Origin: Cetorhinus maximus
Taxonomy: Eukaryota
Assembly: GCF_964194155.1 (NCBI RefSeq)
Contig: NC_135901.1
Coordinates: 25,482,001 to 25,546,000, forward strand
DNA length: 64,000 bases
Direction: 5' to 3'
The position numbers and the translations under genes are program-made. The notes below the pieces were generated by a model, which was not told the origin of the DNA, did not search any database, and saw nothing but the letters and a program-made list of their open reading frames with translations. How positions within the stretch are numbered: position 1 is the first letter of the stretch; each line of letters begins with the position of its first letter. This document shows, piece after piece, positions 13,966 to 17,779 of the stretch.

Positions 13966-14271
13966 AGCGGGTGTGTGGCACTGATATAAATGATCAGCAG
14001 AAATCTATCACACAGAGTGTAAACATGGAATGGACATGACAATGAAGTTTATGCTCTTTGTAGGTCATCATACACGGGCAGAAATAAACAATCAGCAAAC
14101 TGACCGATTCGAGCCCAGGAACTAAATCTCCAAACCTCAGTAAGGCTGCAGTTAACCTCACACCATAGACTGTACTCACTGAATGACTGACCCCATCGGC
14201 AAAGACTTTCTGCTGTGGGCCAAAGGGCTGCAGGTGACCCAGGGTCCTCATTTGAATCTGATTTAAATATA

Positions 14272-14279
14272 TGACGTCA
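14272..14279. promoter_or_regulatory. Perfect CRE palindrome upstream of the TCR V leader
   Basis: TGACGTCA ~130 bp 5' of the leader exon; CRE-like motifs are typical of TCR V promoters. Confidence 0.45.
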
Positions 14280-14407
14280 TTGCCTCATTGTAGGAGAACA
14301 ATGGGAGGAGGAAGTGATGATGAATCTACAGAATCCTCTGACAGGGTCTGTTCTGGTCTGGGTTTAACCTCATAAAGGGACCGGCAGGTTCGGGCTTGGC
14401 AGCGGCC

Positions 14408-14854
14408 AGGGAGATATTGAGCATCTGGGTTGTGCTTGGGATGTTTATTTTCGATAAGGTTGACCCCAGTAGTACTGTATTCAAACTGAAATGTTAACGT
14501 TGTTTCACTTTTTAATACTCGGTCTTGTCTTCTTCCTGAACGCACGTTACAGATCAGAGTGTTGGAGATTCAGTTACTCAGCCCAAGGCATCAGAGAGTG
14601 GGAGAGAAGGTGGAACAATCACTTCAATGTGTACTGCATAAAACTTGTATTATTTATATTGGCGCCGGCAACAACCAGACAAGGAGCTCCAGTTTGTTGT
14701 GTGGAGATGGTCTTGGGGTGAACAACACACAGGAAATGACTTCAGAATTCGTTTCTCATCTGAGCTCCAGGCCACGACTAAATTCACCAGTTTAACTGTT
14801 TCGGGGCTGCAGCTGGCTGACTGCGCCGTGTATTACTGCGCTCTCTCTCAGACT
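14408..14854 (+). pseudogene. TCR alpha/delta-type V gene segment pseudogene (V1)
   Basis: 46-nt leader exon 14408-14453 ((AGG for ATG)EILSIWVVLGMFIF, donor GT>AT), 99-bp intron, V exon from 14553 'DQSVGDSVTQPKASESGREG...YYLYWRRQQPDKELQFVV...RFSSEL...SLTVSGLQLADCAVYYCALS', frameshifted near the first Cys. Confidence 0.88.
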
Positions 14855-14893
14855 CGTAATGATGGAAAACTGTCTCACCACTGTACAAAACCT
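14855..14893 (+). other. 23-bp-spacer recombination signal sequence (decayed heptamer)
   Basis: CGTAATG + 23 nt (atggaaaactgtctcaccactgt) + ACAAAACCT directly after YYCALSQT. Confidence 0.75.
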
Positions 14894-15386
14894 ACCTTTG
14901 GACTGTGGCTGGGCGCTCCTGTCTGTTGGGTGTCAGATAGAATCTCGGCAGATGCAGCCATAATTTGGCTGTCAGGCGTTCAGACACAGATCTAGAGGAA
15001 ATCAAATTAACCTCGGGTCAAACTATCACACAACTGTCTCCAGGAGCAGCCGAGAAAACAAATTGAAGAATCCAATCGGATAGACAGACCCATCAGAGAA
15101 TCAATGTACAGGTTAAACCTTCCTCCCTACTTCTGATCAAATATTTATCTCTTTAAAATCATGGCTCAATATTTAGATCAGCACAGAGACAACGATTGCT
15201 GACACTCAAGAACACTCCTCAGTGTCACAGAATCAGTCTGTTCTGAGCCCTTCACACAAGAGGCTGTTTCCTGTCTCCATCTCAGTGTGTGTCAGCTCAC
15301 AGCAGCGTGACTCAGCTCCGTGTCAGCATCTGACCGCTCTTATATCAGGCGTCAGCAGCTGGAGCCCAGGTGTCCAGAGCGAGGGG

Positions 15387-15418
15387 AGTTTCTGTTTGAG
15401 AGTTTCACTGTCACTGTG
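15387..15418 (-). other. RSS with perfect heptamer but non-canonical 16-bp spacer
   Basis: Minus strand CACAGTG + acagtgaaactctcaa (16 nt) + ACAGAAACT directly after 'CYCSPR'. Confidence 0.7.
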
Positions 15419-15862
15419 AGCCTTGGGGAGCAGTAACACTCTGCAGTGTCTGTCAGTTGCAGCCCCCAGAGAGTCAACGTGGTGAACTTAAGCTCTGCAG
15501 AGAAACGGGCTATTGTAAAATCTGCTTTATCTGCATAACCGCTGGTGTATTTCATCAGAATAAACTCGGGCTGTGTGTCTGGGGGATGCCGGGACCAATA
15601 TAAATAATTGATGCTACGTGTGCCCTCATAGAGACAGTGCAAAGTCACCACTTTTCCTTCTAATGTAACTTCCCGAGGACAGTGGTTGAGTAACAGAGTC
15701 TCCAAGGCTCAGATCTGAAGAAAATGTTCGAACAGTCCTGCGGGTTTTAAAAATTCGAGCTCAAATAATGTTCAGAAAACTAATTAAAGAAGTAAATGTG
15801 TTTAACCCATAATTACCTGTCAGAAACGCACCCCACACAATCCAGATGCTGAGGAGCCGCAT
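15419..15862 (-). pseudogene. TCR alpha/delta-type V gene segment pseudogene (V2)
   Basis: Leader exon 15862-15817 MRLLSIWIVWGAFLT with intact GT donor, 102-bp intron with AG acceptor. V exon from 15714 'DLSLGDSVTQPLSS', then +1 frameshift, then 'EVTLEGKVVTLHCLY...YLYWSRHPPDTQPEFIL...RFSAEL...LQLTDTAECYC'. Confidence 0.88.
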
Positions 15863-17779
15863 TGTCTCTATCTGCTCTGTGAAAGGAGAGCTGGATATTT
15901 GAAGACAACCGTTCTAAACCCCACCCTCAATAATCTGATGTCGTGTCTCAAGATGTTCTCAACTCCTTATGTCAGTGAATGGAAACACCCCAAACCGGGC
16001 TACAGTCAGTCTGCTTACAGGGGGAATGGTTCCACTGTTACAGACCAAGTGGGAATAACATTCCTGTGTGACATGGTGGAGGTTTACCGACTTTCTGACT
16101 ATTTCGGCACACACGAGGTCTACGATTCCTCAATTTAAAGGTGCAGGTTAGTGTGGCATTACTTTCCTCATTGACTGTCACAAGGAGATCCCTTCCACTT
16201 TCCACTGTTTTTTTTATTATATAAACATAAAATAATAGTAATGATTGCCATCACCACCATCATCATCATCATTGAAACTTCTGATGAATCTCTGGAAAGG
16301 CAGCTAGCTCTCTGCAACAGAGAAGATTCTCCACATGTCAAACTTGAAGGTAGATGTTTGAATCTTGAAGCAAAATATGATAAACAACATCAAGTTCAGA
16401 ACTATCATGTTACAGGATATCTGTAATCACAGAAGAGTAAAGGTACATTATAAGCAGTGTACATCCATCATGTATTCTTCTGTCTTTATGTCTGCCTTCA
16501 TACACCCCATTCATTTCAGTTTTCCTCCTTTTTATCTCTCTGTCTGTGTAATAATGATACATATGTAGATACACAGATTCTCGTGCAGTCTCTTTCCCAC
16601 ATCGTGAATTTGTCGGGATCATGTGTATCACCGAGCCCTCAGTGAACCATTGGGTTCATGGGTTGAAGCCAAGTTCAAATAATCCCAAAGTATCTCTTAC
16701 CGGATGCAGTTAATGCTGAGCAAATGGAAACAGTCTCGTTATAATACCGAGAGAAACTTGTCAGTCATTTCAAATCGGAAATAATATTCATCATTCTGAT
16801 GAAAATAGAACTAAGAAACATTTGAGGGCAAGAAACGCATCATGACAATTGGAATGTGAACTATCTGGTTCAATGAGCGGTCAGCAAATGGTTCCAATGC
16901 AGCAGGATCGTCGAGTGATTAAGGTGTTGGACTTAGGTTCAATAAATAAATGCTTAAGTGGAGTTGAACATTCCCCCACCCAGCCTCTTCCTGGAGGTTT
17001 GCCAGAGTTGTTTCCGTTTTTGTTGAGCGAGGAATATGGAGGTAAGGGAATGATGCTGATAGGCAGATCAGCATTCTCTTAGTGAATTCAGAGTAGCCTC
17101 AATGGCTGAATGAACTCCCCCTGTTTCTATTAAAGAACAATATATTTTCCAAATACGGTGGAGAATGATGCAGAGTGAGAAAGACAGATACATAGAAAGA
17201 GAGAAAGTTAGTCTGACAGAGAAAAATTACGATCAATTTATTTCCTAAAAAGGCAGGCTTGGCACAGAGAGTGGCCCATCATAGATGAGTTGAAGAGTTT
17301 AAAAGAAGCTCTTGGAAAGTCGAGTATTGAAGACAAATGGGATTAAAAAGATTAAATCTTGGAGTGTTTAACAAAATAATGATGTAAAGTTTTGGGGAAG
17401 GGGGCGGGTGGTGGTGTATGAACTCCTCTTATTTCTGTGTTACACTTCCCGATTTTTTCCAATTAAGTAAAAACAACCAATCAGACATGGAATGCCTGAG
17501 ACTGCTTGCTGTCAACAATAACACATTTTCCCCTCTCTAATCTCAGTGTTTGAGAGAAGTGCACCTGTTAACCGTTTTCTATTCAGTTTCTCATTTCCAC
17601 ACAGAACAGTTAAACGAGTGGTTTCTCTACTGCAGTCACTGACATCTCAATGTCCATTGATCAGTAGAACCGTCTTCAGTCACGTTAAAATGACTTAATG
17701 GGACAAGATTAAAACACAAACAGCTGGGAATCAGAAATCGAATCGTTTCACAAGTTAGAAGGATTTCCTGGACCTAAGT

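Follow-up and report, generated by a model that had tools for sequence, protein, structure and literature searches.

The window, that is the whole 64-kb stretch of DNA analysed, holds two TCR alpha/delta-type V pseudogenes arranged tail to tail, V1 on the plus strand (14408-14893) and V2 on the minus strand (15862-15387). They lie between C2H2 zinc-finger arrays and within a segmental duplication that continues beyond the window:

1..46991, no strand: window share of a segmental duplication with the V pair and several ZNF arrays, running on for about 51 kb upstream of the window
9400..10240, minus strand: flanking C2H2 zinc-finger array, 11 motifs, facing outward from the pair, with in-frame stops ahead of its fingers
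14100..16000, no strand: V-island-derived DNA of about 2 kb (approximate extent), edged by high-copy repeats and resembling V-island rather than ZNF-block loci
14408..14453, plus strand: V1 leader exon, 46 nt, with AGG where intact relatives have ATG
14454..14552, plus strand: leader intron of V1, phase 1 and 99 nt long, AT in place of GT at the donor, AG acceptor kept in the window copy
14553..14854, plus strand: V1 V exon, TRAV/TRDV type, Pfam V-set 32.9 bits
14855..14893, plus strand: decayed V1 23-RSS, heptamer CGTAATG (14855-14861), 23-nt spacer, nonamer ACAAAACCT (14885-14893)
15862..15817, minus strand: V2 leader exon, 46 nt, ATG kept in the window copy
15816..15715, minus strand: V2 leader intron, 102 nt, GT-AG, phase 1
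15714..15419, minus strand: V2 V exon, TRAV/TRDV type, Pfam V-set 35.1 bits
15418..15387, minus strand: decayed V2 RSS, heptamer CACAGTG (15418-15412), 16-nt spacer, nonamer ACAGAAACT (15395-15387)
19897..21237, plus strand: flanking C2H2 zinc-finger array, 14 motifs, likewise facing outward from the pair and with in-frame stops ahead of its fingers

Both V exons exceed the Pfam V-set cut-off of 26 bits, and the motif YW...LxDxAx[YC]YC, which occurs twice in the window, was absent from 200 base-shuffled windows. The extent of the V-island DNA was taken from a comparison of matches at 51 V-island and 37 ZNF-block loci and from the repeat depth profile. The leaders, phase-1 introns, V-set domains and RSSs recovered here agree with a preliminary description of the same DNA, which had placed two such pseudogenes between ZNF arrays. 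It had regarded them as complete V architectures with RSS; the order of leader, intron and exon stands, while both RSSs turned out to be decayed and the start and donor of V1 to be mutated. Accordingly, a scan of the window tolerating 1+2 mismatches found an intact RSS at neither gene. The V exon of V1 also contains an in-frame TAA (14639-14641) and a 9-nt deletion that occurs only in the window copy; in V2, a 1-nt frameshift near 15672-15674 is accompanied by a 12-nt deletion in framework 3, and a 7-nt deletion that no other copy has leaves a spacer of 16 nt, against 23 nt in the remaining seven copies. Judged by what a functional TRAV/TRDV gene needs, V1 is impaired in start codon, donor, reading frame and heptamer, and V2 in reading frame, framework 3 and spacer. 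On sequence grounds, we predict that the pair does not rearrange and encodes no receptor, and no function is predicted for it.

The assignment to TCR alpha/delta V segments is based on several lines of evidence. Both genes have a split leader (46 nt, phase-1 intron) upstream of the V exon, and the V-set domain terminates past the second cysteine with no germline J part. The 3' RSS with a 23-nt spacer is present as a decayed homologue in V1 and in seven of eight V2 copies, and is canonical in intact relatives on the same scaffold, which also have an open frame, ATG and a GT donor. V1, V2 and these relatives are united in a clade of 17 rows (support 97/97) in a tree built without named reference V genes. 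Among single-domain PDB matches of one intact relative, TCR alpha and delta chains were the best, whereas an IgH-type V from the core shared only 29% identity with V1. Intact relatives P0002 and P0001 are each 57% identical in amino acid sequence to the exons of V1 and V2, respectively; the closest intact relatives are only 76% identical to the pair. A near-length protein search with P0002 yielded two candidates and no match. Relatives that bear a name in the databases are proteins of cartilaginous fish, at 60-77% identity and including one V-J-C model, in line with the cartilaginous-fish origin previously suggested. V1 and V2 are 67% identical to each other and thus represent two V subgroups, as their divergence had led the preliminary description to suppose.

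Other classes of V domain were considered and rejected. Non-rearranging IgSF V domains of the UrIg, UrIg2 or NCR3 type consist of a single VJ exon without RSS, while the exons found here stop at the heptamer and have no J part; the relatives of the pair are rearranging V segments with canonical 23-RSSs, contrary to the possibility that its best matches might be non-rearranging. Supporting V-delta segments of NAR-TCR lack a leader exon, which both V1 and V2 carry. Retrotransposition is ruled out by the introns and RSSs, and the earlier view that the segments arrived as DNA thus holds.

Neither a J motif (FGxG) nor a D-like heptamer pair nor a tblastn match to six constant-domain queries was found in the 64-kb window, consistent with the reported lack of D, J and C segments. 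The tRNA and U1 genes that had been listed as neighbours were not substantiated: in the window, ARAGORN predicted no tRNA gene and Rfam gave no match at gathering score, and U1 is represented by a single sub-threshold 5' fragment (38241-38350, 24.1 bits vs 69.5). tRNA-like relics suspected on visual inspection near 13.9 and 14.1 kb were rejected, as they had no Rfam tRNA match at E <=10. Elsewhere, a tRNA gene occurred in one of 40 sampled stretches. One run, presumed to be RNA, covers parts of the stretch in short contigs only, which is evidence neither for nor against expression.

The pair is assembled at eight places, recurring within copies of a ZNF block whose length, in alignment with one copy, reaches about 98 kb or more. 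The copies of the pair are 95-99.9% identical, and each of the four copies whose flanks were compared (0.89, 6.29 and 13.53 Mb on scaffold G000:C24, which holds the window, and one on C215) aligns collinearly with 28-40 kb of the window, at about 89-96%. Three of the eight copies reside on unplaced scaffolds. The one on C379 agrees with the 13.53-Mb copy at 99.9%, and that on C568 has a 1-nt deletion in common with the 6.29-Mb copy; copies on unplaced scaffolds may be alleles, and the haploid copy number may be five to six. The AGG, AT donor, TAA and non-CAC heptamer of V1 and the frameshift and 12-nt deletion of V2 are common to all eight copies, strongly indicating that the pair died first and was passively copied later. 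Further lesions are lineage-specific, namely the 9-nt and 7-nt deletions of the window copy and, in the other seven, the loss of 10 nt at the acceptor and a stop in the leader. The start and donor of V1 are unchanged in run contigs under three species labels, one of them possibly the window's own species, and its stop under two. In three runs, contigs covered V1 about 5 to 9 times as deeply as a distant V relative; depth does not give copy number.

The presence of the pair in every block copy found, and of V1 with its lesions under more than one species label, might suggest that it is retained for a role, either as gene-conversion donor for TCR V or as regulatory spacer between outward-pointing ZNF genes. 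We regard this as highly implausible: lesions still accrue in each lineage, the terminal branches of the V tree (0.24 and 0.29 vs a median of 0.018) fit relaxed constraint, and relatives at 76% identity would make poor conversion partners.

On C24, the receptor core lies on the minus strand, with a downstream C gene (TM exon) at 14.047 Mb, 73 J segments at 14.05-14.15 Mb (eight ten-kb stretches), an upstream C gene at 14.233 Mb and 16 J segments at 14.238-14.279 Mb; which C gene is alpha and which delta we take from the standard TRA/TRD layout. In the assembly, the pair is thus located upstream of the J-delta/C-delta core, 11.26 Mb separating V2 from the upstream C. The mapping of the pair relative to TRAC/TRDC, proposed earlier as a check, places it 11.2-11.5 Mb from the TRA/TRD J and C genes on one scaffold, a distance that relies on scaffolding across gaps (a 200-N gap occurred in two of 135 ten-kb stretches). 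PSMB5 is found at 10.27 Mb, with a second PSMB5 on unplaced C298, and Ig C1 exons span 0.29 to 60.1 Mb; one Ig C exon compared with solved structures matched IgH constant chains, many of them IgM. TRA/TRD, IgH clusters and PSMB5, the linkage that characterizes the elasmobranch AgRC, therefore occur together, and C24 is a shark antigen-receptor complex scaffold. V islands alternate with C2H2 blocks from 0.1 to 24 Mb, C2H2 arrays being present throughout the scaffold (22 of 40 sampled stretches). No TCR-type V more distal than the pair was found on C24; the pair lies 1.5 Mb past the last V seen and 2.6 Mb past the last canonical V-RSS match.

The preliminary description had offered a choice between orphons carried by ZNF duplications and the edge of a TCRA/D locus interdigitated with ZNF, tRNA and U1 genes. 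Both hold in part, and it is the either/or that falls: the eight copies with collinear flanks identify the pair as a passenger of ZNF duplication, though on the scaffold of its core and not on another chromosome, and it also sits at the distal fringe of a ZNF-interleaved V field, though one for which the tRNA and U1 genes are not supported. In contrast, the suggestion that the locus informs the ancestral antigen-receptor neighbourhood is weakened, since the duplications are young (95-99.9%) and C2H2 arrays are scaffold-wide.

Taken together, we consider it highly probable that V1 and V2 are broken TCR alpha/delta V segments of the antigen-receptor chromosome that were first inactivated and then became passengers of ZNF segmental duplication. 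About 2 kb of V-island DNA with the tail-to-tail pair would have landed between two outward-pointing ZNF arrays, where it is observed today, probably through a rearrangement where a V island borders a ZNF block. Neither gene then kept an open frame, and in V1 the start, donor and heptamer were destroyed as well, as the lesions show. The ZNF block was subsequently duplicated with the pair inside, as the copies show, probably in the order suggested by the tree: lineages about 5% and 3% apart, followed by a burst of copies at 99.6-99.9%. Finally, each lineage gained its private lesions.

An alternative differs in the first step only. The site might be the remnant of a V island that was invaded by ZNF genes and lost its other V segments, all other copies being derived from it. 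At 95.2-95.4% identity to the others, the window copy diverges most, the pair lies 5' of the core, the side to which Table S1 of PMC12227049 assigns most V segments for stingray and epaulette, and it is positioned 1.5 Mb past a dense V island at 23.87-23.97 Mb. Against this, V-island-like DNA covers only about 2 kb, the 200 kb of flanking DNA showed no further V, C2H2 motifs being present in 19 of its 20 stretches, and the copy tree is midpoint-rooted, so that a donor copy cannot be named. A remnant island is possible, but in our view rather unlikely.

It might further be argued that the position of the block and the broad spread of V islands are scaffolding artefacts, with near-identical units misordered, misoriented or assembled twice. 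One intact V locus is present in seven C24 copies, 99.3-100% identical, in both orientations and on both sides of the core; 35 of the 86 TCR-type V-RSS matches 3' of TRAC are oriented as C, which would leave the coding joint on the excised circle; and duplicates occur on unplaced scaffolds. Such errors would leave the local V-in-ZNF arrangement unexplained, as the window and its 200 kb of flanks contain no N, and the same junctions recur in copies 3-5% apart. In addition, public-run contigs span the pair and extend into the flanks, the four to seven copies on a single scaffold are too many for two alleles, and other sharks have scattered V in both orientations (PMC12227049, in the portion considered here). 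We therefore hold an artefact to be improbable. The concern that the block itself might be mis-assembled is likewise answered by the recurrence of the V-in-ZNF junction in copies 5% apart with no gap nearby.

Preferring duplication of an already inactivated pair, we take the pair as a marker showing that ZNF segmental duplications move and multiply shark TCR V DNA; such duplications may explain the megabase scatter of shark TCR V in both orientations. It might even be speculated, although we find it distinctly doubtful, that the TCR alpha/delta V repertoire expands by hitch-hiking on chromosome-wide ZNF and IgH segmental duplication. The resulting V field would cover at least 25 Mb and reach to both sides of the D-J-C core; on C24, about 80% (86 of 108) of the TCR-type V-RSS matches lie 3' of TRAC. 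On this reading, the dead pair would be a dated tracer of the duplication engine. This 3' excess is either real or a scaffolding error. As a possible sign of selection, the strands of V segments 3' of TRAC were compared; they number 52 plus and 36 minus (binomial p = 0.11), in copies that are not independent. If the scaffold order is right and the 3' V segments are used, V-to-J joining by RAG would proceed by inversion, over as much as 14 Mb of ZNF genes, and mammalian loci span several times less. The question raised is thus the reach and direction of V-to-J recombination on such a chromosome.

Human IG/TR orphons in segmental duplications are displaced V segments of the same kind; strictly, an orphon lies outside its parent locus, usually on another chromosome, and the locus considered here lacks a definite boundary. 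The pair described here differs in that it stays on the scaffold of its own locus, at the fringe of the V field, keeps leader and intron, and was multiplied tail to tail within a ZNF block. In the part of PMC2275272 considered, opossum TRMV-OR2 is similarly a non-functional V with RSS moved by DNA-level duplication into unrelated sequence. Nurse shark likewise has a shared alpha/delta V pool with near-identical germline V copies, five of seven delta V families also occurring in alpha cDNAs (Ott et al. 2018, PMC5931798); in the passages used here, that study is based on no more than 17 germline V segments and offers no map of the locus. The closest counterpart is the elasmobranch AgRC (Flajnik et al. 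2025, PMC12227049), in which, according to the sections used here, TRA/TRD core, IgH clusters and PSMB5 share one chromosome, as on C24, and TCR alpha/delta-type V exons are located between IgH clusters. V segments inside ZNF duplications, and a two-sided V field so dense (110 V-end+23-RSS matches on C24, over 0.1-22.9 Mb), are found here and are not described in these sections; the words 'zinc', 'ZNF', 'orientation' and 'pseudogene' do not occur in its main text as available, nor was interleaving of ZNF with TCR V islands found in the literature searched. In Table S1 of the same source, TCR V segments, part of them labelled pseudo, appear in both orientations; they are spread across about 9 Mb in great white shark and lie 30 Mb apart in catshark. 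Scattered shark TCR V segments are thus already published, and the pair is ordinary debris of that region.

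The two TCR alpha/delta-type V pseudogenes of the window, V1 and V2, are arranged tail to tail with about 490 bp between their nonamers, and are composed as follows.

14408-14453, plus strand: V1 leader (46 nt), followed by a 99-nt intron
14553 (start), plus strand: V1 V exon, Pfam V-set
14855-14893, plus strand: V1 RSS
15862-15817, minus strand: V2 leader (46 nt), followed by a 102-nt intron
15714 (start), minus strand: V2 V exon, Pfam V-set
15418-15387, minus strand: V2 RSS

Both exons exceed the Pfam V-set cut-off, and the diagnostic motif YW...LxDxAx[YC]YC occurs twice in the window compared to 0 occurrences in 200 shuffles. 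The preliminary description of two V segments among ZNF genes, with their leaders, introns, V-set domains and RSSs, was correct, as was its statement that D, J and C segments are lacking: none were found within the 64-kb window. C2H2 arrays flank the pair on either side and are directed outward. In those at 9400-10240 and 19897-21237, the degenerate fingers that precede the main array contain in-frame stops. Long near-perfect inverted repeats are present at 9063-9176, just beyond the end of a ZNF array, and at 30696-30807, both scoring weakly against unrelated miRNA models. The tRNA and U1 genes that had been proposed nearby were not recovered, as 0 tRNA genes were called in the window, and the U1 snRNA match at 38241-38350 (plus strand) is a 5' fragment, a truncated pseudogene that matches over roughly the first 50 nt and scores far under the gathering score.

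Lesions were read by comparison with intact relatives. In V1 the start codon reads AGG instead of ATG and the splice donor AT instead of GT, the heptamer lacks CAC, and there is a 9-nt deletion as well as a TAA at 14639. V2 carries a 1-nt frameshift, a framework 3 deletion of 12 nt and an RSS spacer of 16 nt. The two exons share 67% identity with each other and at most 76% with intact relatives; by the usual 75% identity rule for V segments they represent two subgroups, in line with the earlier proposal of two divergent V families. A tree was built from 31 V exons of this genome, namely V1, V2 and 29 distinct stop-free exons found by pattern in fetched loci; V1 and V2 both reside within one 17-row clade (support 97/97). 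For an intact paralogue, the named relatives are proteins of cartilaginous fish (60-77% identity), one of them a V-J-C model. Compared with solved structures, an intact relative finds its best single-domain matches in TCR alpha and delta chains, which multi-domain antibody constructs outrank solely through summed domains.

The window is located at 25.48-25.55 Mb of a 65-Mb scaffold (G000:C24), and further copies of the pair lie on C24 at 0.89, 3.43, 6.29 and 13.53 Mb and on scaffolds C215, C379 and C568, some of those on unplaced scaffolds possibly being alleles. For four copies, flanks of 30-60 kb each were compared; collinearity with the window, including ZNF arrays, extends over 28-40 kb at about 89-96%. 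The pair does recur beside ZNF paralogs, as had been suggested for checking; at the 0.89-Mb copy the match runs 51 kb further upstream, to a total of about 98 kb. DNA resembling a V island (a cluster of V segments) is restricted to about 14.1-16.0 kb of the window. This 2-kb piece may have arisen by insertion into ZNF DNA or may be what erosion left of a former V island. Identity to the other copies is 95.2-95.4% for the window copy; the C215 copy shares 96.7-96.9% with the six young copies, which are 99.6-99.9% identical among themselves. The fatal lesions of both V1 and V2 are common to 8 of 8 copies, the remaining ones being lineage-specific, suggesting that both segments were inactivated before the copies separated. 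The V1 start and donor show no listed change in contigs from runs with three species labels, one of which may equal the window's own species, and the V1 stop under two; a single contig covers 14383-14680 unbroken. A second dead relative of V2, 80% identical, has a framework 1 insertion and lacks a nonamer at 23 nt. Its five copies are at C24 0.98, 6.37 and 8.38 Mb and on C256 and C1433, the 0.98-Mb one lying about 90 kb from the pair in DNA rich in ZNF.

With the C part of the V-J-C model as query, two C genes were located on the minus strand of C24 at 14.233 and 14.047 Mb. Sampling of the interval between them in eight ten-kb stretches yielded 73 J segments, and 16 more lie upstream of the first C gene; assuming the standard layout, we take this core to comprise J-delta, C-delta, J-alpha and C-alpha. 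One IgH-type V and several unusual V segments reside amid the delta J segments and just upstream (14.271, 14.275 and 14.30-14.34 Mb), where TAILV or trans-rearranging VH would be expected, and V segments that we take to be NAR-type are present in several islands flanking the core on either side (8.00, 14.33 and 14.50 Mb). The distance to TRAC/TRDC, which was to be mapped, is 11.26 Mb from V2 to C-delta, in like orientation. With PSMB5 at 10.27 Mb and Ig C1 exons spanning 0.29 to 60.1 Mb (150 scored out of 906 candidates), the layout agrees with that of the elasmobranch antigen-receptor complex described by Flajnik et al. 2025 (PMC12227049). The unplaced scaffold C298 duplicates PSMB5, an Ig C exon and an IgH-type V of C24:10.27-10.47 Mb with equal scores, suggesting an alternative haplotype retained in the assembly.

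A pattern of V end plus canonical 23-RSS, which captures some V families only and thus gives lower bounds, matched 176 times in the genome (control, 0): 110 times on C24, 37 on small, apparently unplaced scaffolds, 27 on C33 (0.78-1.66 Mb) and 2 on C4 (0.99-1.00 Mb), the last two probably being the TCR beta and gamma loci. On C24 the matches cluster in islands between 0.10 and 17.96 Mb and at 22.8-22.9 Mb, and sampling added a dense island at 23.87-23.97 Mb. Located 3' of TRAC are 88 of the 110 (52 plus, 36 minus), and 22 are 5' of the core (11 and 11). Judged from their ends and neighbours, two of the 88 would be IgH-type; TCR-type matches 3' of TRAC number 86 of 108 (0.10-13.83 Mb). Inverted V segments 3' of TRAC are the teleost layout. 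Of the 86 matches, 35 share the C orientation and should be unusable by RSS geometry. The excess on this side reflects either real recent duplication or an error in scaffold order. No search run found a TCR-type V beyond the window on C24. Among 40 ten-kb samples along C24, two of them chosen next to known V matches, 22 contained C2H2 arrays, five V segments and 0 both. A walk through 0.77-1.07 Mb met the dead pair and the second dead V2 relative within a ZNF block, then a gap, then a V island.

The long-range order of C24 crosses gaps (2 of 135 stretches) and the scaffold holds near-identical units (99.3-100%); thus, the 11-Mb distance and the V field on the 3' side are no more reliable than the scaffolding. 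The local V-in-ZNF arrangement is safer, since the window and 200 kb of flanks contain 0 N bases and the same V/ZNF junctions recur in diverged copies.

Both pseudogenes are unremarkable V debris of a known complex, and ZNF duplications have multiplied them. In Flajnik et al. 2025, TCR alpha/delta-type V exons are located between IgH clusters, and Table S1 lists them, for one shark, in both orientations across about 9 Mb (PMC12227049). The main text does not mention zinc-finger genes, though the PDF supplement could, and no paper on V/ZNF interleaving in sharks or TCR loci was found, as judged by listing, with most subscription journals outside the search. The remaining interest lies in the locus-wide V field, which would extend over at least 25 Mb and straddle the core. 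In the Table S1 sheets for stingray and epaulette, nearly all TCR V segments are 5' of the C genes, and those in the great white sheet are 3' of the TCR alpha model in the orientation that the sheet gives (PMC12227049), so that the C24 assembly is not alone in having V segments 3' of TRAC.
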